DNA of 31,304 nucleotides from an uncultured Peptococcaceae bacterium (GCA_964448915.1 CAYUXS010000001.1:34940-66243); one strand, 5' to 3'; shown: positions 10,320-24,249, counted from the first letter of the stretch. Notes: generated from the sequence alone by a model not told the origin. Numbers and translations are program-made.

Positions 10320-12128
10320 TTACAAGTAATACTCAAGTATTATTTCCTGCTTCTTTAGCAGTTCACAAACTGCATCTACTGCACCTTCAAAATTATTTAT
10401 GTCATCAATACTGGCATCCGGTTTAAAGTTGCTGAAAGGCGATTCACCAGTATTGATAATTAAAATCTCATTTGGTTGATTTAATAATTTAAGCATTTCA
10501 GCTTCATAATCGTCCAGGTTAAATATTGAAGTAATGAAAATCTGCCCCGAATCAGTAAATATTCTTGCAAGCTCGCCAATCTGCCTTATTTGATGATCTC
10601 TTCCTTCAGTATCAGGTGTAAAATCATAACTTAGTCCATGAACAAGACTTGAAACTCCGAGATAGTACGCCTTATATCTCATCTTGAAAAGTCTTTTTTC
10701 CAGTAACTTTGCTATATCCTGTATAGTATTTTCATATCCAAGGCTGCCGGATGTAATAACTATAAATTTCGATTTATGCCCGTATCCGGCACTTCTTTCA
10801 TCTGCTGAGATCAATCCTTTTTCCCATAAAAATTCCCTGTCTTTGACATGATCAATCAAGGTATTGTCGTCATCTGGAACGCTTTCTAAAATAATTCCCC
10901 CACCTGATATTTCATAGTTATCAACAATTACAAACCTTCCAGTTTGCTCAATTTCGGAAACGGCGTCAAAAGCAATGGGCTTTGCAGTTTCCAATATGCA
11001 CTCCGCAACATCATGTCTTTCCACCTGATCCTTATAAGTTTCAATATTTAACCCTGCCGCATCAATTATATTTAATATTTCGATAAGCTTTACTCGAACT
11101 CTCGCCGTACCTATTTTAAGTTTATAATTTTTATTTTTTATTAAGGGTGCCTTGCCAACCCAAAAGATATTTGCTTTAAAGCGGGAGCTTACAATTGGCG
11201 GCTTTTCATCCGCTTTAACCATAAGCTCTCCAGGTTTAATGTAGATTTGGGTTTCCAGCGTGACTCCTATTGCTTCGCCGGCATATGCAGTATCTCTGGG
11301 TTTAACATTAAACCTTTCAATACTCTTAATGATGCTTCTCTTATTTGAGGGTAAAAAAACAACCTCATCCCCTGTATTGATCACACCACTTAAAACCGTA
11401 CCTGCTACAATCCGTCTATCATCCCCTTCCTTGGTAAACTTGTAGATATCCTGAACAGGCATACGAACCGGAAGCTCTATATTTTTCTTTTTGTTAGTAA
11501 AACCATCTAATTGTTCTAAAACAGTTGGGCCGTTATACCATTTTAGATTGCCGGATCTGCTTGCAATATTATCTCCACCAAAAGCACTGATAGGTATAAA
11601 ATTAAGCGGCCTGATATTCACTTTATCCAAAAATCCAGCAAACTCATTGCGTATGGAATTAAATACACTCTCCTGAAAGCCCACAAGATCCATTTTATTA
11701 ACCAGTACAACAACCTGCTTAATTCCCAGCATGGAAACTATATGGCCATGTCTTTTGGAATTTTCCTTTATCCCTTCCTTGGCGTCTATAACCAAAAGTG
11801 CAGCCTCGGCTCTTGATGCTCCCGTAACCATATTTTTTAAAAATTCTATATGTCCGGGTGCATCAATAATAATGTAATCTCGTTTTTTAGTATTAAAAAA
11901 GCATCTCGCAGTATCAATGGTAATCCCTTGTGCTTGCTCGTCCTTTAACGCATCAAGAAGAAATGCATATTCAAAGGGTTTCGAATTTTTACGGCAATAT
12001 TCTTTTACCAATTCCAATTTTCCCTCAGGGAGAGAACCGGTATCCGCCAGAAGCCTGCCTATTACAGTACTTTTGCCGTGGTCCACATGCCCGACAATAA
12101 CAATGTTCATCTGTTCCCTGGTTTCCAT
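10320..12128 (-). CDS. cysN: Sulfate adenylyltransferase large subunit (EF-Tu-like GTPase) with a degenerate C-terminal APS-kinase-like domain
   Basis: [29 protein letters not shown]. The C-terminal domain lacks a P-loop. Confidence 0.93.
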
Positions 12129-12130
12129 AT

Positions 12131-13012
12131 TTACATGTAACCCCCCCTGCGCAGGGTCTCAAGACCTCCACCATCATCCTTATCCTGGGCACGGCCGGAC
12201 CTTTCAGCTATATTTGAAAACTTGCCGCTTTTTAGCTCTTCAATAATGTCGCTTACATTCTTTGCATCTGAATCTACTGGAAAAGTGCATGGATAACAAC
12301 CTAAAGACCTGTAACGTTTACCATTGCCCTGGTCAAAGTAAAGAGAAGTTACAGGTATATTCTCTCTTTCTATATACTCCCAGATATTTAATTCAGTCCA
12401 ATCTAACAATGGGTGTATCCTGATATGAGTTCCGGGAGCGAAATCCGTCTTGAACTGGTTCCAAAATTCAGGTGGCTGATCCCCGACATCCCAGTCATTT
12501 TCCTTATCTCTTGGAGAAAAATACCTCTCTTTTGAACGGCTTCCCTCCTCATCTGCCCGTACCCCGACAATAACACCGGTATATTTTTCTCTACTTGTAT
12601 CCGGTACATATTTACCAGTTTCATGATCCAAAACATACCGGTTCCATTTTCCTGAAAGGGTATGTTTTAAGGCCTCAGTTTTTAGCGCTTGACAGCAAGT
12701 AAGCCGGTCGACTTTCCCCTCAGGAAAGGTTTCCTTCTTTAACAAAGCATCGCTATTTTCGCCATATATCATGGTAAGATTCCACTTCAGTGCAAGTTCA
12801 TCTCTATATTTAATCATTTCAGGAATTTTATAGTGGGTATCAATGTGTACAAGGGGTATCGGTACATGTCCAAAAAAAGCTTTTCTTGCCAGCCATAGCA
12901 GTACAGTACTGTCTTTACCGATAGACCAGAGCATGCAGATATTTTTAAATTCCCGGTAGGCTTCTCTTAATATATAAACGCTTTGTGCTTCCAACTTATC
13001 AAGATGATTCAT
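12131..13012 (-). CDS. cysD: Sulfate adenylyltransferase subunit 2
   Basis: [11 protein letters not shown]-loop, [34 protein letters not shown]. Likely start ATG 13012 after GGAGGA. Confidence 0.95.
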
Positions 13013-13031
13013 ATTAAATCCTCCAAGGTCT

Positions 13032-13838
13032 TCAGCTTTTGATATGGCAAGATGGAAGTTCATAATCTATCAACTCATTAATTACGGGTTGATTACCACA
13101 AACAGGGCAATTTGTATTTCTATTAACTTTAATATCTCTAAATTTCATCGATAGTGCATCGTATGTCAGTAACCGTCCAACCAAAAGTTCCCCTATACCA
13201 AGCAGATACTTGAGTACTTCTGTTGCCTGGATTAAACCGATTGTTCCAGCCAGGACACCCAACACACCTGCTTGTGAACATGTAGGTACAGCACCTGCAG
13301 GTGGGGGTTCGCCAAATACACAGCGAAAACAAGGCCCCTGGCCCGGGATAATAGTAAAAGCCTGTCCGGAGAATTTTAAAATTCCTCCATGAACAAAAGG
13401 TATTCCGGACATAACACAAGCGTCATTTGTTACGAAACGGGTTGAATAATTATCAGTACCATCCACCACTATGTCATAATCCTTTATGATTTTCATAATA
13501 TTGCCAGCCATAAGTCTTTCTTTATAAGTAACAATATTGCAGTCAGGATTTAGATTTTTAAGCTTTTCTGCTGCCGACTCAACTTTCGGCCGGCCAATAT
13601 CTTTAGTGCTGTGGAGTATTTGTCTTTGCAGGTTACTCAAATCCACTACATCGTCATCTATTATCCCCAGTGTACCAACGCCTGCAGCAGCCAGGTAATA
13701 AGCTACTGGCGAACCAAGACCTCCTGTACCGATAATCAGAACACGTCCATCACAGATTTTTTTCTGCCCTTCTCCCCCGACTTCCGGCAGGATAATGTGT
13801 CTACTGTAACGAATTACCTGTTCTTCATTAAAGTTCAC
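13032..13838 (-). CDS. ThiF/MoeB/HesA (E1-like) sulfur-carrier adenylyltransferase, HcyF-like, no rhodanese domain
   Basis: [34 protein letters not shown], Zn motifs CFRC and CPVC, active-site [10 protein letters not shown]. Confidence 0.93.
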
Positions 13839-14800
13839 TGCCTTACACCCCTTCTCTTTAAGTCCAGGCGAAAATACGGCTCCATACTAAAGTACCTTTC
13901 ACCCGAATCTGGGAAAATGGTAACAACACGCTTTCCGGGACCCAACTCCCCGGCCACCTTCAAAGATGCAGAAAGGGCGGCCCCCGACGAAATCCCTGCG
14001 GAGATTCCTTGTTTCCTGGCTAATTCCCGGGAAAGAATATATGCTTCACTGTCATCTACACTAATAATCCTGTCTATTACCTTAAGATTTAAGGTTTCAG
14101 GTATAAAGCCGGCGCCAATTCCCTGAATTCTATGCGGCCCCGGCTTTCCGCCGGACAATACCGGCGACTGGGCAGGTTCAACACCAATGATGCGAACCCC
14201 TGGAATTTCTTTTTTTAAAACCTCTCCAACCCCACTGATGGTACCCCCGCTTCCAATGCCTGCCACAAAAGCATCTATTTTCCCGCCGGTTTGTTCCAGT
14301 ATTTCTTTAGCTGTGGTAAGCTGGTGTGCTTCCGGATTTGCAGGGTTGCTAAACTGCCTTGGCATATAATAATCAGGATTTTCGGCAAGGATTTTTTCTG
14401 CTTTTAAGACGGATTCTCTCATCCCGGCGGGATTTGGAATAAGAACTAGGCTGGCCCCGTAAGCTTCCAAAATCAACTTCCGTTCACTGCTCATTGTCTC
14501 GGGCATTACTAGGATTAGTCGATAACCCCTGGCGGCTGAAACCATCGCCAGTCCTATTCCGGTATTGCCGCTAGTCGCTTCAATAATAACCCCGCCGGGT
14601 TTAAGGAAACCTGATTTTTCGGCATTTTTCACCATGTGTAAAGCAATCCGATCCTTTATACTTCCACCGGGGTTAAACATCTCCAATTTAGCAAAAACGG
14701 ATGCGGAGTCTTTATTAGATACTGATATTTCTACCATGGGGGTATTACCTATTAAACTTGTTATATCACCATCAATTTTATTGACTAACTTGCCAGTCAT
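13835..14800 (-). CDS. cysK: Cysteine synthase (O-acetylserine sulfhydrylase, CysK-like)
   Basis: PLP lysine motif NPGGSIKDRIA, EATSGNTGIGLA, GIGSGGT, HRIQGIGAG. Likely start ATG 14800 after GGAGGT. Confidence 0.92.
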   Translation of the reverse strand: MTGKLVNKIDGDITSLIGNTPMVEISVSNKDSASVFAKLEMFNPGGSIKDRIALHMVKNAEKSGFLKPGGVIIEATSGNTGIGLAMVSAARGYRLILVMPETMSSERKLILEAYGASLVLIPNPAGMRESVLKAEKILAENPDYYMPRQFSNPANPEAHQLTTAKEILEQTGGKIDAFVAGIGSGGTISGVGEVLKKEIPGVRIIGVEPAQSPVLSGGKPGPHRIQGIGAGFIPETLNLKVIDRIISVDDSEAYILSRELARKQGISAGISSGAALSASLKVAGELGPGKRVVTIFPDSGERYFSMEPYFRLDLKRRGVRQ

Positions 14801-14804
14801 GAAA

Positions 14805-15008
14805 TTAATGACCTCCACCCATAAAAAAAAGTATATCGATGGAGTCTCCGTCTTTAATAATTGTTGTCTGGAAAGAATCCTTTTCCACAATCGAACCATT
14901 TAAACTTATATTGATCATTTCCGGGCTAAACCCATATTCTGTGATCAGTTCCAAAAGCGTATATTCTTTATTTAGCACTTCCTTGTCTCCATTAAGATAG
15001 ATTTCCAT
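14805..15008 (-). CDS. thiS: ThiS/MoaD-family sulfur carrier protein (HcyS-like) ending ...FFMGGGH
   Basis: 67 aa beta-grasp pattern (MEIYLNG...LNGSIV...IKDGDSIDIL) with a Gly-rich C-terminus and one residue after the GG. Confidence 0.9.
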   Translation of the reverse strand: MEIYLNGDKEVLNKEYTLLELITEYGFSPEMINISLNGSIVEKDSFQTTIIKDGDSIDILFFMGGGH

Positions 15009-15010
15009 GT

Positions 15011-15250
15011 TTACTCCCCCTTTTCAATCAATAACTTGTACTTTTCTCCAAGTTTTTCTACCCTAATTATTTTATGCCCCTCATCTTTAACACTGCGGGG
15101 AACATTTTTAATCGGCTCCCCGGAATTAAGTATTACTTCAAGAACTTCCCCTTTTTTCATCTGCTCCAACTTTAGATTGGTTTTTACAAAAGTAATTGGG
15201 CAGACATCTGAAGTAATATCCAGTGTGGAACTTATTTTAATTTCATTCAC
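15011..15250 (-). CDS. TusA/SirA-family sulfurtransferase
   Basis: LDITSDVCPITFVKT (LD..G..CP-type motif), GEVLEVIL, NVPRSV. Confidence 0.9.
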   Translation of the reverse strand: MNEIKISSTLDITSDVCPITFVKTNLKLEQMKKGEVLEVILNSGEPIKNVPRSVKDEGHKIIRVEKLGEKYKLLIEKGE

Positions 15251-15284
15251 AGCAATCGCCCCATTTTTTTAGAACTTTTTTATA

Positions 15285-16133
15285 TCAGATTTCCATCTTT
15301 TCTTTAAAAGCATCCACACCTACCCTGGCAATGGTGTCAGCAATCCGCTCACCTTGGGTCGATAATTTTTCATAAGCCATTAGGACCTTATTAACAACCT
15401 CAATTATTTCATTTTGTTGTACGAATTTTATTAACACCTGACCTAAGCATGGCTTTCGGCCAATTTTGCCCCCTGCATACAGCAGATATCCCCTTCTTTT
15501 TTCTTTCCATGCATCAACCGGACAGGAAAATATGCAGTTTCCTTCCATAAGGCATTTAGACTCATCTCTTTCCGGTTTACCCTTAATCATCGTTATTGCC
15601 TTGCTGGGGCAGACTTTTTCACAAATAGCACAACCTATACATTTCTCCTCATCCAGAATAGGCTCAATTACCCCGAGTAAGCCAATATCGTTTTCCTGGG
15701 GCTTGGCGCAGGAATTTGGGCAACCCGAAACTGCTATTTTAGTCTTCATGGGTACCTGGCGTCCAAAAAAAGCTTTATCCAATTCTATGGCTGCTTCTCT
15801 CGTATTCATGAGACCGGAGGAACAAACCTCAATCCCCGGGCAAGCAACCACCGACCTGATACGAGGGCCGCATGTGCCGGTATGAAGACCCAGCTTCTTT
15901 ATTTCCTCACTCATTTTTTCATAATCGTTAATGTTTACCCAGGGAATTTCGGTTCCTTGCCTGGTTGTAACATGAACGTATCCCTTACCATATTTTTCAG
16001 CAAGATCAGCCAGTTGTCTCAAATTCTCACTGGTTAAATTCCCTGCAAGACTTCGAAAACGAACTATAAAAGTGTCTTTTTGTTTTTGCTTTAAAAAACC
16101 GCCCTTTTTTAAATCGTCATAGTTAATAGCCAT
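15285..16133 (-). CDS. Small siroheme sulfite/nitrite reductase with an inserted ferredoxin domain (AsrC/Sir-like)
   Basis: HVTTRQ, siroheme-[4Fe-4S] ligands CPGIEVC and GCPNSC, ferredoxin motifs CIGCAICEKVCP and CLMEGNCIFSCP. Confidence 0.9.
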   Translation of the reverse strand: MAINYDDLKKGGFLKQKQKDTFIVRFRSLAGNLTSENLRQLADLAEKYGKGYVHVTTRQGTEIPWVNINDYEKMSEEIKKLGLHTGTCGPRIRSVVACPGIEVCSSGLMNTREAAIELDKAFFGRQVPMKTKIAVSGCPNSCAKPQENDIGLLGVIEPILDEEKCIGCAICEKVCPSKAITMIKGKPERDESKCLMEGNCIFSCPVDAWKEKRRGYLLYAGGKIGRKPCLGQVLIKFVQQNEIIEVVNKVLMAYEKLSTQGERIADTIARVGVDAFKEKMEI

Positions 16134-16151
16134 ATCTTTACTCCTAAATAT

Positions 16152-16490
16152 TTAATCATTTTTAATTTTCATAGAGTTGTGGACCTTTATCGAAAATTCT
16201 TCTTTCTTCCCGTCAAATCTATTTAACTTCCATACAACCGTCTCACCAATAGCCCGGGCGGTAAGGGTAGATCCCCTACCGCCGATTTGTATTGGCAAAA
16301 ACATTTCAATAGCCTGGCGAGGACATTCTTTTATACAAGCTGCACAATCCCAGCAATCATTGGGGTCTCTGATGCTGCATTTCCCGTTTGCACCTTTGTA
16401 CAATAAATCCCCGGGGCATACTGCAACACACCTTGCTTCTTTCATCTTCCCGCAGCCGTTGCACAGGGTACTATTGATCCTTACAGCCAT
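16152..16490 (-). CDS. aprB: APS reductase beta-subunit-like 2x[4Fe-4S] ferredoxin
   Basis: CNGC...CVAVCP and CWDCAACIKECP. Directly downstream of the AprA-like gene. Confidence 0.8.
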   Translation of the reverse strand: MAVRINSTLCNGCGKMKEARCVAVCPGDLLYKGANGKCSIRDPNDCWDCAACIKECPRQAIEMFLPIQIGGRGSTLTARAIGETVVWKLNRFDGKKEEFSIKVHNSMKIKND

Positions 16491-16537
16491 ACCACTACAC
16501 CATCCTGACTTTCTTGCTAAAAGTCCTACCTAATTCG

Positions 16538-18220
16538 TCACATTCCTTTGTTTAAAGGCTTTTCCAAAACATTAAAGGTATCTGTTTTGGAGTCATACAG
16601 TGAATTAACAAAAACCAACCATCTTTGATCATCCCTTCCGGGATAATCAACCCTCTCCTGGTAACTCAACCATCTGGTTTCTTTCCTATATAAAAGGTGT
16701 TCTACAACAGCTCTGGCAACTAAAACCCGGTCAATAACTTCATGGGCTTTAACCAGTTCGTAAATATCAGAAGAAAAAATACTTAAATTAATATCTTGAT
16801 CCAGCTTTTTAAGCAAATCCTTTGCTATTAAAAGCTTACTGGCACAAGTTTCATAGTTTGTGGTAATTCCCCCGGCATATTCGTCCATAACCTTTTGTAA
16901 TCTTTCTTCATATTCATCCGGCGAAGGGCCACTCAACCTGCCTAGAGGTGTATAAACCCTGCCGTACTCATCTTTAATACTTTCCTCTCCGACTTCCAAT
17001 AACTTTGGAACACCATCCAAATAATTCAATGCTGCTGTCGCCGCTATTTCCGCCTCTGCAAAACATCCGGTTACATATTTCTTAGGTGCGCCTCCTGCCA
17101 CGTCGCCGGCTGCAAACAGCCCTTGGATACTGGTCTGCCGTGAAACATCCACCCAATACCCCGCTTGACCATGCCCTCCCACTATATAGGGTTCAGAACC
17201 ACACAATTCAAGAAGCATTTCATTTGGTTCAACACCCTCATCAGCCCACTTTAAAACCATTCCAGGAGACATGTTAAGATAAGCTTCTTTAAGTTTTTCG
17301 TTAACTGATTGAGGTATATGAGTCATATCAAGGTAACAGGGGCCCTTGCCGGCTTTGTTCTCTTGGATAGTGGCGTACAACCTGGAAGGAGTTGTTTGAT
17401 CCTGGTACTTTTTTAGGTACTCTTCCCCCAGTGCGTTGATCTGTCTTGCCTTAAATCCTTGTACCACTGTACCGGTTGGTGAAATAACATCCTTTATCCT
17501 AAGAGCAATAAATCTCATCTCAAAAGTGGTCATTTCAGCCCCGGCCCTAAGTCCCATTGCAAAACCCGTTCCTACATTAAATGGGCAGTACCACATTTTG
17601 TGCCCGGCTGAACCGGCATTGTTGGGTTTATATATTCCAGAAGCCCCTCCAGTTGTGCAAATTACAGCCTTGGCTAAAATAACATAAAATTTGTTATCCC
17701 TGGAAGAGAAAGCATATACCCCAGCTGCCCGCCCTTTGTCTACGATATAATTGGTAGCTACAGTCCTGTTTAAAACCTTTGCGCCTGATTTTTCAACAAC
17801 AGATGCCAATATTGGCTTAATATGTTCACCGGTGATTTCAATGCTTCTTTTACCCCTGGGTTTATATCCACCCGACTCGTCTTTAACAATAGGCAGACCC
17901 CACGATTCTATCTTTTCTGTGACTTTATTTAATCTCTGCCCAATGGTCAGGACCAAATCTTCCCGGATTAGGCCTGCCGAATCTTTCTTTACGTATTCAA
18001 GGTAACTTTCTGGGGTTTCCCCCGGATTTAAGTAAGCATTAATAGCATTTACCCCCGCTGCCAAGCACCCGCTTCTTTTTATATTTGCCTTCTCAACTAT
18101 AATCACCTCAGTTTGAGGGCTGATTTCTTTAATAGTGGCCGCAGCATAGCATCCTGCAGTCCCTCCTCCAACAATAACAATGTCGGTAAAAAGTCTTTCT
18201 ATTTCGATTCGATCATGCAA
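16538..18220 (-). CDS. aprA: Adenylylsulfate reductase alpha subunit-like flavoprotein (AprA, SdhA/FrdA superfamily)
   Basis: FAD motif VGGGTAGC, KRSGCLAAG, WYCPFNVG, EMRFIALR, GLFAAGD, RKETRW. Genomic context of sulfate activation genes. Confidence 0.85.
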   Translation of the reverse strand: MHDRIEIERLFTDIVIVGGGTAGCYAAATIKEISPQTEVIIVEKANIKRSGCLAAGVNAINAYLNPGETPESYLEYVKKDSAGLIREDLVLTIGQRLNKVTEKIESWGLPIVKDESGGYKPRGKRSIEITGEHIKPILASVVEKSGAKVLNRTVATNYIVDKGRAAGVYAFSSRDNKFYVILAKAVICTTGGASGIYKPNNAGSAGHKMWYCPFNVGTGFAMGLRAGAEMTTFEMRFIALRIKDVISPTGTVVQGFKARQINALGEEYLKKYQDQTTPSRLYATIQENKAGKGPCYLDMTHIPQSVNEKLKEAYLNMSPGMVLKWADEGVEPNEMLLELCGSEPYIVGGHGQAGYWVDVSRQTSIQGLFAAGDVAGGAPKKYVTGCFAEAEIAATAALNYLDGVPKLLEVGEESIKDEYGRVYTPLGRLSGPSPDEYEERLQKVMDEYAGGITTNYETCASKLLIAKDLLKKLDQDINLSIFSSDIYELVKAHEVIDRVLVARAVVEHLLYRKETRWLSYQERVDYPGRDDQRWLVFVNSLYDSKTDTFNVLEKPLNKGM

Positions 18221-18263
18221 ATACGTATCACCCCTATCCCAACCAACCGGTTATATAATCAAG

Positions 18264-18896
18264 TCAGCTTTTTATTTGATCTATAATTCCTTTTTGCTGT
18301 AAGAAACCAATAACCTTATCAACTGATTCTTCAAGGTTTTCATTTTGAGTATCCAACACAATTTCAGGTTCCAAAGGTTCCTCATAAGGAGATGAAATCC
18401 CGGTAAACTCCTTTATCTCCCCGGCCCTGGCCTTATGGTACAAGCCTTTGACATCTCTTTTTTCACATTCATGCAACGGGCATTTCACAAATACCTCAAT
18501 GAAATCTCCTTTACCCAGTAAACTCCTGGCCATGTCTCTATCTGATCTAAAAGGCGAAATAAAAGCTGTAATGGTGATTATCCCTGTATCAGCGAATAAT
18601 TTCGCCACTTCACTGATACGCCTTATGTTTTCTTTCCTGTCCTCAGATGAGAAGCCAAGATTTTTGTTAAGGCCAAGCCGGATATTATCACCATCCAAAA
18701 CATAAACCAAATAGCCATTTTCAAAGAGTCTTTTTTCCAGTTCTACGGCTATAGTGGACTTCCCGGAGCCGGAAAGGCCTGTAAACCAGATCACCACGCC
18801 TTTTTGCCCTAATAATCTTTCCCTGTCTTGTTTTGTGATGTTTCTTTCATGCCGGACAATATTCGTTGCTTTTTGCACATTGAACCATCTATGCAT
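18264..18896 (-). CDS. cysC: Adenylyl-sulfate kinase
   Basis: WFTGLSGSGKST, LDGDNIRLGL, ENIRR, RDVKGLY, FTGISSPYEEP. Start is probably ATG 18896 or GTG 18878. Confidence 0.95.
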   Translation of the reverse strand: MHRWFNVQKATNIVRHERNITKQDRERLLGQKGVVIWFTGLSGSGKSTIAVELEKRLFENGYLVYVLDGDNIRLGLNKNLGFSSEDRKENIRRISEVAKLFADTGIITITAFISPFRSDRDMARSLLGKGDFIEVFVKCPLHECEKRDVKGLYHKARAGEIKEFTGISSPYEEPLEPEIVLDTQNENLEESVDKVIGFLQQKGIIDQIKS

Positions 18897-19674
18897 TGTT
18901 ATCCAGTCCCCAACGCAATCGTATTTTACTCTCCAACTTTCCAAACATAAGTTTGTCGATTATCAGGCCAATGGAAATTATTATTATCATGACTCCAACC
19001 ACTTGATTCATGTCATGCAGATCACGTCCTATCAGCAAGGCATAGCCTAAACCGTCTTTTGGTGATAAAAGCTCACCTGCCATTAGTGCGCGCCAGGCAA
19101 AGGACCATCCCTGCTGCATACCTGTTATTATTGACGGTAGGGCTGCCGGGATAACTACAGTGGTATAGGCCTTAAGTCCTTTTGCCCCCATGGTTTTGGC
19201 AACCCTCATATACAGTGGTGGAACATTTTTTATTCCAGAAATAACTGCTGTAGAAATTGAGAAGACAGAACCTATGGCAACAACAAAAATAATTGAATCT
19301 TCTCCAATACCAAACCAGAGAATGGCCAGCGGCAGCCAGCAAATACTGGGCAGTGCCTGCAAGCCCAGGAGTAGGGGTCTTAATGTATCATCAAGATAAC
19401 GAATTCTAATTATTGCCAAGCCTAAAATTAAACCCGACAAAAGTGAAATTATGTAGCCGGTGGCAACTCTTTTGATACTCACAGCTATTGCTATTGAATA
19501 AGATGTGTCCTTAAAACCCACCAAGAGATTACTAAATACACCCAGGGGTGATGGCAGGAGATATTCCGGCCAAATTTGGAGTCTAAATACCATCTCCCAT
19601 ATTGCTATAAGGACTAGGTAAAAAAGAATCTTTTTGCAAAGACCACTGGCTGTCGAATTCACTTTTAGCGACAT
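18889..19674 (-). CDS. ABC transporter permease (SsuC/TauC/NitT type)
   Basis: LLPSP, LQALPSICWLPLAILWFG, EAA-like region AKTMGA...VVIPAALP, WRALMAGEL. Confidence 0.92.
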   Translation of the reverse strand: MSLKVNSTASGLCKKILFYLVLIAIWEMVFRLQIWPEYLLPSPLGVFSNLLVGFKDTSYSIAIAVSIKRVATGYIISLLSGLILGLAIIRIRYLDDTLRPLLLGLQALPSICWLPLAILWFGIGEDSIIFVVAIGSVFSISTAVISGIKNVPPLYMRVAKTMGAKGLKAYTTVVIPAALPSIITGMQQGWSFAWRALMAGELLSPKDGLGYALLIGRDLHDMNQVVGVMIIIISIGLIIDKLMFGKLESKIRLRWGLDNNA

Positions 19675-20419
19675 TTTCCACTTCCTCCTTAAGTTCTTTC
19701 ATGATCTGTTTAGTGAAAAATGCCAGATCAATATTTTCTATAGTTCTTGGCCTGGCCAACTTAATGTCAAATATTTTTTTTATCCGCCCAGGATTTGCTG
19801 ACATGACGATAACCCTGTCTGCAAGTAAAACTGCTTCCTCTACGTTATGAGTTACGAAAACTATAGTTTTTCCTGTAGCCCTCCATATCTCCTGGAGTTC
19901 CATGTGTAGTATGGTTCTTGTCTGGCTGTCAAGGGCTGCAAAGGGTTCATCCATTAACAAAACATCTGAATCGACAGCCAACGCCCTGGCCAGTGCAACC
20001 CTTTGTCTCATCCCACCGGATAATTCATGAGGGTATGATAGGGCAAACCGGGTTAAGTGAACCATCTTCAAATATTGATAAGCCCTTTCTTTTCTTTCTT
20101 TCTTGGGGACTCCAGCCATCTTCATCCCGTATTCAACATTGTCTATCACTTTTGCCCAGGGAAATAAAGCTGCCTCTTGGAACATCATGGCCCGGTCCGG
20201 CCCGGCCCCGGTAATTTCAGTTCCTTCTTTAAGGACTCTCCCACTGGAAGCCCCGTCAAGACCGGCAATAATATTTAGCAAAGTTGATTTGCCACAGCCT
20301 GATGGCCCTACAATGGTAATAAATTCCCCTCTGTCAATGGTAAGATCCACGTTTTCCAATGCATTTATCAAGCCATTATTACTTGAATAACTTTTTACTA
20401 CGCCTTCGAGCTTTATCAA
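19583..20419 (-). CDS. ABC transporter ATP-binding protein (SsuB/TauB type)
   Basis: GPSGCGKST, FQE, LSGGMRQR, LLMDEPF, VTHNVEEA. Confidence 0.95.
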   Translation of the reverse strand: MIKLEGVVKSYSSNNGLINALENVDLTIDRGEFITIVGPSGCGKSTLLNIIAGLDGASSGRVLKEGTEITGAGPDRAMMFQEAALFPWAKVIDNVEYGMKMAGVPKKERKERAYQYLKMVHLTRFALSYPHELSGGMRQRVALARALAVDSDVLLMDEPFAALDSQTRTILHMELQEIWRATGKTIVFVTHNVEEAVLLADRVIVMSANPGRIKKIFDIKLARPRTIENIDLAFFTKQIMKELKEEVENVAKSEFDSQWSLQKDSFLPSPYSNMGDGI

Positions 20420-20431
20420 ATTAACACTTCC

Positions 20432-21484
20432 TTAGTTGACAGTTAATTCTGTTTGGCCTTTTTGCTTTAGAACCTTATTAATTAATTCCAAGTTAAACAA
20501 GTTGCTTGTATCCGGCTTTTCTTTCAAGTACCCTGCCGTTAAAGAAAAGTTTATAAACTCTTTAATCGATGCGACTACAGGGTCATTTGTAACATTTACC
20601 CTGGCAAATGAACTATTTAGTATGTCTTCAGGAAGTTCTTTCTTAGTGAGTTTTTCTAACTGATCTTTAATAAGGGCTTTACTTGCTTCTTTATCTTGTT
20701 TAATCCGATCTGTCAGTTCGACATGTGCGGCCAGCCATTTTTCAACTAGATCAGGGTGCTTTTCTAAAAATTTTTTATTAACTATAACAACTGTAGTTGC
20801 ATAGTTGCCATCCAGCCAAAGTTCATTTGAATCCAATATGATTGTGGCCCCAGTCTGCTTAATAATGGTTGAAGCCCAAGGTTCGGGAACCAAAGCTGCA
20901 TCTATATCACCCCTGGCAAAAAGCGTAAGAATATCTTGATTTTCTGCAGGAATGATCGTTACAGTTCCACCTTTTGAAGAATCCTTTAAGTTAGCCTGGT
21001 TCAAGAGGTTTCTCAATAGAATATCCTGGGTATTTCCCAGTTGAGGTATGGCGACAGTTTTCCCATCAAGTGCCTTGACATTTTTTATATCAACACCTTG
21101 GCGGGCCAACAGTACAGCACCACCCGTGGAAGCCCCGGCAATTTTGTGAATTTGCCCTTTAGATCTTGCTTTGACAGTATTTGCCTGTCCGGGTCATTTA
21201 TACTCCAAATCGATTTGTACGGCTAACAGCGCTTCGATTTCTGCGGGGCCTGCATTAAACTTGTGTTCTTCTATCACTACATTGTCCCCAAGCGTTTTTT
21301 TGAACGTTCCATCATTAAGTCCGACCAGTGCCTGAGTATGTGTGATATTGGGGAAATACCCGACTTTCATTACTGTTTTGCCATCTTTTTCTGGATTAGA
21401 ATTTCCACAACCGGACAGCGAAACGGCTCCAATTAAAATTACTGACAATAATGTTGCAATCTTAAAACCAGCCTTACGAATCAT
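20432..21484 (-). pseudogene. ABC substrate-binding lipoprotein (SsuA/aliphatic sulfonate type) interrupted by an in-frame TGA at 21196-21194
   Basis: ATG 21484 after AAGGAG, lipobox LSGC, VGYFPNITH, PQLGNTQD, VPEPW. The two track ORFs are in the same frame and would total 350 codons if the stop were read through. Confidence 0.85.
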
Positions 21485-21523
21485 AATTATCTCCTTAAAC
21501 AACTAATTGATTTATACAGCCAC

Positions 21524-22753
21524 CTAGGCTTTTAAAGCTTGTTCAAAGTCCTCAATCAAATCCTCGATATCTTCGACACCAACGCTTACCCGTATCAAAT
21601 CTTCAGTAACCCCCATAAGCTGTTTTTCCTCATTTGAAAAAGATGAATAAATAGTGGATGCAGGATGAATCACAAGGGTTCTGATATCGCCAATATTGGC
21701 CAGGTTGTAGGCATACTTTAAATTGTTTATAACCTTAAATGCCCTTGTCTTCGAACCCACCCCAAAAGTTAACAGGACTCCATATTTGTTATTGAACTGA
21801 ACTTTGGCAATGTCATGATACCGGTTATCAGGCAGTCCGGGGTAATTAACCCAGGAAACCCCAGGGTGAGAGCTCAAAAACTGGGCCAGTTCCATTGCGT
21901 TGCTACACATACGATCCATCCTAAGGCCTAATGTTTCAAGGCCAATGGTGTTTAAAAAAGCATTGAAGGGCGAAATGCATGCCCCAATATCCCTGTGTAA
22001 ACCTTTTCTAAGTTTCGCCAAGTAAGCTAGAAAACCAAAGGTTTGACTTAACTTATTAAGCTTTGGAAATTTATCTGCCGGCCATGAAAACCTGCCCCTG
22101 TCAACAATAATCCCACCAATTGAGTTGCCGCTGCCATTTATTAGCTTTGAAGTTGAGTGAATAACTATGTCCGCCCCGTAATCAAAAGGCCTCAATAAGT
22201 AGGGTGTGGTCACGGTATTGTCCACGACTAGTGGTATACCGTGCGAATGGGCTAATTGGGCCAGTTCTTTTATATTTGGAACATCCATTTTAGGGTTTCC
22301 AATTGTTTCTACAAAAATGAGTTTGGTTTTACCAGTTAACTTCTTGGCAAAGCTTTCCGGTTCTGCCGAAATGGCAAACTTCGTTTTGATACCATAATCT
22401 TTAAGACTGTTAAACAAAGAATACGTGTCACCAAAAATCCCAGTGTTTACAACCAACTCATCGCCTTGTTCCATCAGGTTTAAAATTGCCAAAGTAATTG
22501 CCGCCATTCCGGAAGCACAGGCAATAGCCCCAACCCCATTTTCAAGAAGAGCAACTCTTTGTTCAAAATAATCAATAGTAGGGTTATTTATCCGGGTGTA
22601 TATGTAGCCATAACCAGTTCCTTCAAAAATCCTCTCCAATTCCTCGGCAGAATTATGGTAAAAAGAAGTAGATTGGTATATAGGAATTGTTGTAGCTCCA
22701 ATTTTCATATCCGCCTTATGTCTGCCATGCAAAAGCTTGGTGTTGAAACGCAT
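21524..22753 (-). CDS. O-acylhomoserine sulfhydrylase / Cys-Met metabolism PLP enzyme (MetY/MetZ-like)
   Basis: PIYQSTSF, YTRINNPT, ASGMAAI, ETIGNP, VDNTV, PLP lysine in HSTSK, IRVSVGVEDIEDL. Confidence 0.88.
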   Translation of the reverse strand: MRFNTKLLHGRHKADMKIGATTIPIYQSTSFYHNSAEELERIFEGTGYGYIYTRINNPTIDYFEQRVALLENGVGAIACASGMAAITLAILNLMEQGDELVVNTGIFGDTYSLFNSLKDYGIKTKFAISAEPESFAKKLTGKTKLIFVETIGNPKMDVPNIKELAQLAHSHGIPLVVDNTVTTPYLLRPFDYGADIVIHSTSKLINGSGNSIGGIIVDRGRFSWPADKFPKLNKLSQTFGFLAYLAKLRKGLHRDIGACISPFNAFLNTIGLETLGLRMDRMCSNAMELAQFLSSHPGVSWVNYPGLPDNRYHDIAKVQFNNKYGVLLTFGVGSKTRAFKVINNLKYAYNLANIGDIRTLVIHPASTIYSSFSNEEKQLMGVTEDLIRVSVGVEDIEDLIEDFEQALKA

Positions 22754-22788
22754 TATTCATTCTCCTGCCAAAAGTTTGTCTATTGCTT

Positions 22789-23196
22789 TTAAATAATCTT
22801 CAAAGGTATTTCATCATAATTCCCATCTTTAATCTGAAAACACTTTATAACAGGATTTTCCTGGGATAAGGAAATGATCATATAAACGGCATCCGGATTA
22901 TACGCCAGTTTTATATCCTCCTTTGAGGGACGAGCTGGAGTTGAAGGGTGACTGTGATAATTACCAAGTATTACAAAGCCTTTTTCTCTGGCAGCATAGT
23001 AAGCTTCAAACTGCTCCTTGGGATCCATAGAAAAATGTTCGGGGCTATGATCCACGTTCTTCATTGGGTATATTTCCTTTATCTCAATTAAATCTTGTTC
23101 AACAGTTCCGGCAAGGATACCGCAACACTCTATAGGCAGGTGTTCTTTAGCTTGCTTGATAATTTTTTTTATTTTATCCGGGGAAATAATTACCAT
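22789..23196 (-). CDS. JAMM/MPN+ (M67) metalloprotease, Mec+/HcyD-like
   Basis: ECCGIL, JAMM motif YHSHP..PARPSKED. Confidence 0.93.
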   Translation of the reverse strand: MVIISPDKIKKIIKQAKEHLPIECCGILAGTVEQDLIEIKEIYPMKNVDHSPEHFSMDPKEQFEAYYAAREKGFVILGNYHSHPSTPARPSKEDIKLAYNPDAVYMIISLSQENPVIKCFQIKDGNYDEIPLKII

Positions 23197-23312
23197 TTAC
23201 AACTTCCACCTTATATAAGCAGTAATGGCAAAAGCAATTATTCCTAGAATAATATTAATATTATTATATAAGTATTAATATTATTCCTACTGATTTAATA
23301 TTGTTAAGGCAT

Positions 23313-23393: not shown

Positions 23394-23420
23394 AAAAAAG
23401 CGGTTGAATACAACCGCTTT
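23394..23420 (-). terminator. Intrinsic terminator after larE
   Basis: On the minus strand AGCGGTTG-TATT-CAACCGCT followed by TTTTT, starting at the larE stop codon. Confidence 0.85.
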
Positions 23421-24249
23421 AGATGAACTTAAGAGGCATGACATCATTCATGCTTCCACTGCGATAGCCCCTTAAATCGAGAGTAATATATAAAAAACCA
23501 ATCTGTTTAAATGCTTCATACACTCTTTCCCTTACCTCTCCATGAAGAAACTTATTAAATTCTGATGGTTCAACTTCAATTCTGGCTACACTGCCATGAT
23601 GGCGCACCCTAATTTGTTTAAAACCCAATGAAAGTAAATAGTCTTCTGCTTTTTCCACCATGGCTAATTTTTCACGAGTGATTTTTTCACCATAAGGGAA
23701 TCTGGATGACAGGCATGCACATGCAGGCTTATTCCAGGTATTTAAACCCAATTTTTTCGACATTAACCTTATCTCTTCTTTCGTCAGGCATGCATCTTTT
23801 AATGGACTAATAATACCAAGCTCTTCAACAGCTCTCATGCCAGGCCTGTAATCATTTAAATCATCTAGATTGGAGCCCTCTGCTACATGTTCAATACCTT
23901 TTTCCTTGGCAATTTGCTTTATTTTAGTAAATAACTGTGACTTACACAAATAGCAACGGTTTAAAGGATTCTCTGAGAAACCTTCTATATCCAACTCCTC
24001 AAGATCAATTATCAAATGGGTGACACCAAGCATTTGGGCAAAAGCCGAAGCCTCATATAGTTCCCTCACAGGATATGTGGATGAGTTGGAAGTTACAGCA
24101 ATAACGTTTTTCCCCAGCAAATCATGGGCTACTTTTAAAAGAAATGAACTGTCTACCCCACCTGAAAATGCTACTGCCAATTTACCCAGTTTTTTGATAT
24201 TAGATTTAAGCAATTCAAATTTTTGCTCCAGATCAACCATATTAACCAC
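23419..24249 (-). CDS. larE: LarE-family ATP-dependent (PP-loop) sulfur insertase
   Basis: AFSGGVDSS, RCYLCK, GSNLDDLNDYRPG, SPL, KPACACLSSRFPYG, RVRHHG, GYRSGSMN. Start GTG 24249 or ATG 24240. Confidence 0.88.
   Translation of the reverse strand: MVNMVDLEQKFELLKSNIKKLGKLAVAFSGGVDSSFLLKVAHDLLGKNVIAVTSNSSTYPVRELYEASAFAQMLGVTHLIIDLEELDIEGFSENPLNRCYLCKSQLFTKIKQIAKEKGIEHVAEGSNLDDLNDYRPGMRAVEELGIISPLKDACLTKEEIRLMSKKLGLNTWNKPACACLSSRFPYGEKITREKLAMVEKAEDYLLSLGFKQIRVRHHGSVARIEVEPSEFNKFLHGEVRERVYEAFKQIGFLYITLDLRGYRSGSMNDVMPLKFI

Follow-up and report, generated by a model that had tools for sequence, protein, structure and literature searches.

In a 31,304-nucleotide (nt) stretch of DNA from an uncultured Peptococcaceae bacterium (GCA_964448915.1 CAYUXS010000001.1:34940-66243), here termed the window, we describe a sulfur-assimilation operon that encodes one ThiS-like sulfur carrier together with two pyridoxal phosphate (PLP)-dependent enzymes that could accept its sulfur, a cysteine synthase (CysK) and a MetY-type O-acetylhomoserine sulfhydrylase. 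Judged from sequence, homology and gene order, which are what the analysis covers, the operon most likely reduces sulfate and carries the reduced sulfur as a protein thiocarboxylate rather than freeing it as sulfide. We lean somewhat towards a relay in which the single carrier supplies both CysK, for cysteine, and MetY, for homocysteine. An initial annotation of the window had proposed such sharing and had offered a CysK on free sulfide as the alternative; a carrier-linked subclade of CysK, natural fusions of carrier and CysK, clusters in which CysK stands alone, a deletion in MetY and the single carrier gene now favor the former. All coordinates are those of the window unless a locus or contig is named.

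The seven genes on which that proposal was built (JAMM, MetY-like, Sir, TusA, ThiS-like, CysK and ThiF/MoeB) were all recovered; each lies on the minus strand and has a strong match to its family. The extent assigned to them, 13032-23196, lies within the operon but covers only part of it, since the operon continues through CysD and CysN to 10320. In total, 16 genes run from 23196 to 10320, with intergenic gaps of at most 47 nt that leave no space for a further gene. Besides the seven, they include an NMT1/SsuA-type ATP-binding cassette (ABC) transporter, CysC and an AprAB-like adenosine 5'-phosphosulfate (APS) reductase between MetY and Sir, as well as CysD and CysN after ThiF. The annotated position of cysK between the carrier gene and the E1 gene is borne out by the coordinates and by translational coupling on both sides. 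Its ATG lies 4 nt after the thiS stop codon, its Shine-Dalgarno sequence, GGTGGAGGT, is made of the carrier's Gly codons, and its TGA overlaps the GTG of thiF as GTGA. The thiS ATG in turn follows the TusA stop codon by 2 nt, and a GGAGGA stands 7 nt before the CysD ATG at 13012.

In the relay that we propose, CysDN would make APS, which the AprAB-like reductase would convert to sulfite. The small Sir would reduce the sulfite, with TusA as the putative immediate handler of the sulfur. JAMM would remove the carrier's His67, so that ThiS-GGGH becomes ThiS-GGG. The rhodanese-less E1 would then adenylate the Gly at the terminus, and the thiocarboxylate, ThiS-COSH, would form with sulfur supplied by Sir/TusA. 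On CysK, ThiS-COSH would attack the PLP-aminoacrylate made from O-acetylserine; on MetY, its target would be the corresponding vinylglycine-type intermediate derived from O-acetylhomoserine. An S-to-N acyl shift would follow, and JAMM would then hydrolyze carrier-cysteine or carrier-homocysteine, freeing the amino acid and regenerating the carrier. Each of these chemical steps is predicted from the gene content, order and coupling above and from the phylogeny, fusions, peptidase swap and block co-presence described below.

CysK as a core member of the cluster family

The initial annotation had left room for CysK being a sporadic insert in orthologous clusters, and this is not what we found. 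In a sample of 80 loci anchored on sulfite reductase and drawn from one-genome-per-species contigs, TusA directly follows Sir in 42. The ten Sir-TusA-ThiS loci closest to the window come from Bacillota metagenome-assembled genomes (MAGs), one of them assigned to Thermincola ferriacetica, and CysK follows ThiS in all ten at a spacing of 2-50 nt. An E1 gene is present in 34 of the anchored loci, 27 of which also encode a cysteine synthase and 13 a ThrC-like enzyme. CysK is thus a core cluster member. True MetY, besides that of the window, occurs in only two of the 34 E1-bearing loci, L025 and L033. The linkage of Sir, TusA and PLP sulfhydrylases to a ubiquitin-like system recurs across phyla.

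Several clusters keep the carrier and have CysK as their only PLP enzyme. In L024, the carrier, E1 and JAMM are all retained. Four others have the carrier and E1 without JAMM or MetY, and an M20 peptidase lies directly behind CysK (L027:12284-13501, L031:12336-13619, L032:12291-13472 and L036:10714-12033). The best families of this peptidase are carboxypeptidase CpsA (409 bits) and the TIGR01891 amidohydrolases, the latter above cut-off. The same CysK-M20 order is found in L030, whose contig of 3.4 kb stops short of any E1, and BLAST places M20 peptidases in L030, L038, L040 and L042 as well; in Neomoorella, an M20 peptidase lies directly behind ThiS. The carriers of the M20 clusters likewise end in GGG plus one residue, and an M20 carboxypeptidase would fit the removal of one C-terminal residue, whether this is the residue that masks the carrier or a cysteine bound to it. 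In the JAMM-less M20 clusters no carrier partner is in view except CysK, and these clusters suggest that the carrier can serve CysK alone.

In several phyla, ThrC-like PLP enzymes adjoin E1, Sir and TusA (L028:7642-8904; L041, L043, L072, L074, L091, L094 and L103). They are probably carrier-dependent homocysteine synthases of the MetM type.

A carrier-linked subclade within canonical CysK

The initial description of the window enzyme as a member of the CysK clade holds up in a tree built with CysM sequences (E. coli CysK and CysM from NC_000913.3, M. tuberculosis CysM from a PDB alignment). The enzyme falls within canonical CysK together with E. coli CysK and not with M. tuberculosis CysM, which lies outside that clade along with E. 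coli CysM and a CysM-like group. It clears the cysK equivalog cut-off (Table 1) and stays below that of the cysM model (293 vs 394 bits). Its motifs are canonical (the Schiff-base Lys in SIKDR, TSGNTG, GxGTGGT, GISSGA and GPHRIQGIG), and its best relatives of solved structure are ordinary CysKs, including M. tuberculosis CysK1. Membership in the M. tuberculosis CysM type was considered and rejected: beyond the tree placement, that CysM is outside the best 60 structural matches, the Gln of GPHRIQGIG stands opposite its Arg220, which binds O-phosphoserine, and the window enzyme has no C-terminal ...LW tail.

Within canonical CysK, the window enzyme and ten Bacillota cluster CysKs form a clade (Shimodaira-Hasegawa-like approximate likelihood ratio test (SH-aLRT) support 99), whose sister group consists of eight natural ThiS-CysK fusions of 377-386 amino acids (aa) from Omnitrophota, Planctomycetia and unclassified bacteria. 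In the fusions, an N-terminal ThiS that terminates at an invariant (Y/F)MGGG is joined to CysK by a linker of 4-14 residues that varies. The joint clade of 19 sequences (SH-aLRT 98) grows to 27 (support 95) when CysK-anchored metagenome loci are added; CysK is adjacent or fused to ThiS in 21 of the 27, and in one further member CysK has JAMM at its side and is followed by a ThrC-like enzyme plus a second ubiquitin-like protein (Ubl). At its C-terminus the clade bears GERY[FL]S[MIV]EPYF as a signature instead of GERYLSTxLF. In the CysK-anchored metagenome sample, the sequences most similar to the window's (58-62% identity) are arranged as JAMM-ThiS-CysK or JAMM-CysK-ThrC-like-Ubl and carry this signature, and the lower matches have GERYLSTxLF and no carrier. 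When one fusion was searched against 5.8 billion proteins, all of the 120 best matches listed combined PF02597 and PF00291 at 73% identity or more; they represent at least 120 fusion clusters and, in the sources that give a name, appear only as 'cysteine synthase'.

Fusions of 372-419 aa were seen in loci L048, L062, L064, L066, L067, L068, L070 and L081 and as proteins P0121-P0240. A ThrC-like enzyme is also encoded in most of these eight loci, along with a second MoaD-like carrier; a JAMM gene occurs in four.

As a broader proposal, for which we see slightly less than an even chance, the carrier-linked subclade would take its sulfur from a protein thiocarboxylate and would constitute a large unrecognized family, including the at least 120 fusion clusters, which would need release by JAMM. 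The single carrier of the window would then be the branch point between CysK and MetY, at which sulfur would never become free sulfide. We found no paper describing a thiocarboxylate-using enzyme of the CysK clade in the literature searched.

The genome contains a second cysK, on contig C207 (2-1911), that is 59% identical, is split into two frames around 1364-1411, and lies beside a fragment of a second metY (47% identical). In the tree, this cysK groups with the housekeeping CysKs of relatives from the same order. The C207 genes look like a housekeeping cysK/metY pair, and the frame split could be an assembly error or mark a pseudogene. Across 60 genomes of the order, the best CysK is at most 59% identical to that of the window; cluster CysKs of other lineages reach 65-72%.

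These findings bear on a Wolinella-like reading, in which carrier, E1 and JAMM serve MetY only and CysK is an ordinary O-acetylserine sulfhydrylase, merely co-transcribed, that works on sulfide released by Sir. CysK is kept in carrier/E1/peptidase clusters without MetY (L024 and the four M20 loci with an E1), has ThiS-CysK fusions as its sister group, coexists with a separate housekeeping-type CysK, and is translationally coupled to both carrier and E1, all of which speak against such a role. Its equivalog score and canonical active-site residues are nevertheless what this reading expects, cysK genes are generally common in sulfate-assimilation operons, and the sole biochemically proven pathway of the operon class reportedly makes homocysteine. 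We consider it unlikely that MetY is the only client, and favor a carrier that supplies CysK and MetY alike.

A separate group of CysKs on soil metagenome contigs (L196, L197, L202, L203, L218, L220, L221, L230, L232 and L240) is about 51% identical to the window's. Its members have the tail GERYVSTPFFAPEP... and TusA and a ThiF-like gene come after them, an arrangement that may represent a further independent connection of CysK with E1/TusA.

The carrier and its putative processing enzymes

The carrier ends in MGGGH followed by the stop codon, and its relatives end in GGG and one further residue that varies (R, K, F, L, A or V); the last residue must come off to expose a Gly terminus. The JAMM is intact, with a complete HxHx7Sx2D motif (E23 ... 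H-S-H-PSTPARP-S-KE-D), both HSHPSTPARPSKED and the Glu upstream being in place, and its best solved relative is 2kks (128 bits). The E1 has both CxxC pairs and the GTGGLGS loop and is without a rhodanese domain: the MoeZ model NF005902 matches it over only the first 270 of 392 positions. The TusA gene is located between those of Sir and ThiS. A profile search of all six-frame open reading frames in the MAG returned one strong ThiS-like protein, the window's, and a second, weak and unrelated candidate on contig C188.

A ubiquitin-like system of this kind might act in something other than the supply of sulfur to amino acids, either in SAMP-like protein modification that regulates CysK or MetY, or as a source of sulfur for a cofactor or tRNA. 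Such a role would suit the best NCBIfam match of JAMM, a haloarchaeal desampylase, and the presence of the SAMP-activating UbaA among the E1 matches (both below cut-off), as well as the larE-like sulfur insertase gene just upstream. The operon, however, has no E2/E3-like, cofactor or tRNA-thiolation gene, its carrier is of the ThiS type, and the association with Sir, TusA and PLP sulfhydrylases is tight across phyla. We regard this role as very improbable compared with the assembly of cysteine and homocysteine from a carrier thiocarboxylate.

MetY as a candidate second acceptor

Among solved structures, the window MetY is closest to that of T. maritima (422 bits) and scores 313 bits against 3ri6, the Wolinella MetY structure of Tran et al. 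2011. With the MetYs of L025 and L033 it forms a clade of 100% support on a long stem (0.74). The MetYs of relatives from the same order, present in 14 of 60 other genomes, lie apart from this clade and do not exceed 51% identity. In each of the three clusters with this MetY type, JAMM stands directly upstream of MetY, and the three enzymes have in common a deletion of about nine residues in the conserved PDPSYHG loop and several motif changes. Measured by matched spans, a 55-residue stretch at this loop corresponds to 52 residues in W. succinogenes 3ri6 and to 62-66 in eight other solved homologs, and over a 114-residue stretch 3ri6 is short in the same way; on this measure, only the thiocarboxylate-using Wolinella enzyme among the solved homologs is as short as the window's at the loop. 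MetY thus looks carrier-linked.

A genome of the same genus (G001, 94% complete) has the syntenic backbone on one contig, in the order response regulator, histidine kinase, substrate-binding protein, ABC ATPase, permease, CysC, AprA, AprB, Sir, CysD and CysN, with proteins 62-87% identical to those of the window. There, CysD follows Sir after 108 nt and the binding protein follows the kinase after 437 nt; the TusA-ThiS-CysK-ThiF and larE-JAMM-MetY blocks are therefore both missing, and no ThiS-like match was found in this genome. In a further genome (G002), the whole operon is absent. The presence or absence of both carrier blocks together fits one functional module.

That joint absence from G001, together with the JAMM gene upstream of every MetY of this type and a divergent MetY clade whose loop deletion is, among solved structures, found elsewhere only in the Wolinella enzyme, argues against a carrier that serves CysK only, with MetY living on free sulfide and its adjacency to JAMM incidental. 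Such a division would agree with the rarity of MetY, which most clusters of the family lack, with the overall similarity of the window MetY to the sulfide-using T. maritima enzyme, and with the second carrier found on the homocysteine branch of related two-acceptor systems, but we judge it quite improbable. In the arrangement that we favor, with one carrier for both enzymes, CysK looks like the primary and ancestral acceptor in the cluster family, and JAMM-MetY like a second outlet added to the single carrier.

Evidence against one carrier for two enzymes

Several observations weigh against this arrangement. The canonical active site and equivalog score of CysK mean that free sulfide would also work, and the clade-specific changes in CysK are modest, amounting to the C-terminal signature and a few others. 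Five of the 27 clade members have neither a carrier nor a JAMM beside CysK: four loci (L164, L168, L172 and L175) contain no query gene anywhere, and in L046 Sir and TusA adjoin. The related systems with two acceptors, a ThiS-CysK fusion and a ThrC-like enzyme, bear two carriers, so the sharing of one carrier would be a feature of the Bacillota variant and not a general rule. Because MetY is closer overall to the sulfide-using T. maritima enzyme than to that of Wolinella, the loop deletion that it has in common with the latter may be convergent; this deletion was, moreover, read from matched spans and not from a residue alignment. Finally, cysE, metA and metX gave no match above cut-off in the MAG, which is 88% complete and consists of 315 contigs; the activated substrates named in the relay are accordingly putative.

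Relation to known thiocarboxylate systems

The operon belongs to a class that is already known, type 4e, and that is tied to thiocarboxylate chemistry. In the type 4e neighborhood, a ThiS/MoaD-like polypeptide and a JAB protein occur with an E1 that is always without rhodanese, and SirA (TusA) is always present; its distribution is sporadic and includes Wolinella, Geobacter and several Gram-positives of low GC content (Iyer, Burroughs and Aravind 2006, PMC1779556). Cysteine synthase is listed there for types 4c and 4d (E1-rhodanese fusion), to which the M. tuberculosis CysO/CysM system belongs, and not for 4e, and operons of cysteine synthase, ThiS, JAB and E1 were described by comparative genomics in the same 2006 work (PMC1779556). 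The window displays the hallmarks of type 4e and of the Wolinella HcyS system: a masked Gly-Gly carrier, an intact JAMM, and a rhodanese-less E1 with TusA, alongside co-operonic Sir, sulfate activation, a transporter and an O-acetylhomoserine sulfhydrylase. It differs from type 4e in having CysK and in an AprAB-like APS reductase that replaces the reductase for 3'-phosphoadenosine 5'-phosphosulfate (PAPS).

Krishnamoorthy and Begley (2011) are said to have described a Wolinella succinogenes member of this class (HcyS/HcyD/HcyF/Sir/MetY) that makes homocysteine from HcyS thiocarboxylate. That cluster resembles the window in its ThiS-like carrier with an extra C-terminal residue, its JAMM, its rhodanese-less E1 and its Sir and MetY; the two MetYs are short at the same loop region of about nine residues by matched spans. 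The window is distinguished by a CysK between carrier and E1, apparently the primary acceptor, by a MetY that is not a close ortholog, as its bit scores indicate, and by APS reduction of the AprAB-like kind. Use of the carrier thiocarboxylate by Wolinella MetY is stated in PMC8191291.

The CysO/CysM/Mec+/MoeZ system of M. tuberculosis has the same chemistry as that proposed here (thiocarboxylate plus aminoacrylate, acyl shift, and JAMM hydrolysis to cysteine), and there too the carrier gene adjoins a cysteine synthase gene and the cluster includes a JAMM. Unlike in that system, the window enzyme is of the CysK type, the carrier needs trimming at GGGH, the E1 has no rhodanese domain, and the sulfur would come from the operon's own Sir/TusA. 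Streptomyces MetM/MetO is a MetO-thiocarboxylate-dependent homocysteine synthase (GapMind 2026, PMC13759103). It likewise has a carrier thiocarboxylate feeding a PLP enzyme, and ThrC-like plus MoaD-like pairs of this kind stand in the ThiS-CysK fusion clusters; the window, by contrast, has no ThrC-like enzyme or second carrier, and its homocysteine branch would be MetY.

The active-site cleft of CysK takes the C-terminal tail of its partner serine acetyltransferase (CysE), a precedent that lends mechanistic plausibility to the insertion of a carrier tail. In the window, a substrate carrier with a Gly-Gly-Gly-COSH terminus, and not an inhibitory ...GDGI tail, would take the partner's place.

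The characterized thiocarboxylate routes each employ one dedicated enzyme, namely CysM of M. tuberculosis for cysteine and Wolinella MetY or Streptomyces MetM/MetO for homocysteine. What is new here is the placement of two acceptors, a carrier-linked CysK subclade and a divergent, JAMM-adjacent MetY, and not the type of system. If the CysK subclade uses the carrier, it would be a third enzyme lineage to do so, in which the trait arose within canonical CysK and is indistinguishable to annotation pipelines from sulfide users. Sulfide-free assimilation may in that case be widespread in anaerobic Bacillota, Omnitrophota, Planctomycetota and others, and one carrier with two PLP enzymes would show how flux splits between cysteine and methionine. 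From the ThiS-CysK fusions and from the exchange of JAMM for M20, one would predict that a single C-terminal residue is removed. The signature at the C-terminus of CysK and the loop deletion of MetY could act as annotation markers.

Operon features and neighboring genes

The operon genes and the elements upstream of them are collected in Table 1. A search against Rfam detected neither a riboswitch nor a T-box in the window or the leader.

Table 1. Genes and putative signals of the operon and its upstream flank, in order of transcription
Feature	Position	Strand	Remarks
larE-like PP-loop gene (sulfur insertase-like)	23419-24249	-	just upstream of the operon; own strong terminator
Strong terminator of the larE-like gene	23397-23420		precedes the promoter-like site, upstream of JAMM
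Promoter-like site TTAACA-16-AATAAT	23280-23307	-	upstream of JAMM; consensus match only
JAMM/MPN+ metalloprotease, HcyD/Mec+-like	22789-23196	-	Prok-JAB 8e-24
MetY-type O-acetylhomoserine sulfhydrylase	21524-22753	-	Cys_Met_Meta_PP 5e-120; TIGR01326 480 bits
NMT1/SsuA-type substrate-binding lipoprotein of ABC transporter	20432-21502	-	one in-frame TGA at 21194-21196
ABC transporter ATPase	19583-20419	-	G001 ortholog 76% identity
ABC transporter permease	18889-19674	-	BPD_transp_1
APS kinase CysC	18264-18944	-	APS_kinase 1.5e-72
AprA-like APS reductase flavoprotein	16538-18220	-	NF005331 847 bits, above cut-off
AprB-like ferredoxin subunit	16152-16490	-	family match
Small AsrC/DsrB-like assimilatory sulfite reductase (Sir)	15285-16133	-	NIR_SIR plus ferredoxin insert
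TusA/SirA sulfurtransferase	15011-15250	-	Cys-Pro conserved
ThiS-like sulfur carrier, 67 aa	14805-15008	-	TIGR01683 60.8 bits; ends FFMGGGH
CysK	13835-14800	-	TIGR01139 431 bits (cut-off 351)
ThiF/MoeB-type E1 adenylyltransferase, 268 aa	13032-13838	-	PF00899 only; GTG start
CysD, sulfate adenylyltransferase small subunit	12131-13012	-	
CysN, GTPase subunit	10320-12128	-	C-terminal APS-kinase-like domain, weak match, residues 429-548

The larE-like gene is absent from G001 together with JAMM-MetY, and a 2026 preprint reports that LarE, ThiS, ThiF and CysK recur near Thi4 genes. Across 10320-18944, the AprAB-like APS reductase is accompanied by a separate CysC, with no PAPS reductase or other PAPS user in view, and G001 is arranged alike.

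The in-frame TGA in the binding-protein gene splits the reading frame at ...DLEYK*PGQA..., where G001 has ...DLGYIGPVPA...; as G001 reads YIGP there, the TGA occupies a position expected to be Gly. Recoding of the TGA was considered and set aside, a mutation or sequencing error being judged likelier for a single case in which the congener has Gly.

In Sir, the second ferredoxin motif (residues 194-205, 15519-15554) reads CLMEGNCIFSCP. Its non-Cys position is Glu or Asp in 16 of 18 homologs and Cys in the other two, with C194, C200 and C204 invariant; the change is therefore a trait of the family and not peculiar to the window gene.

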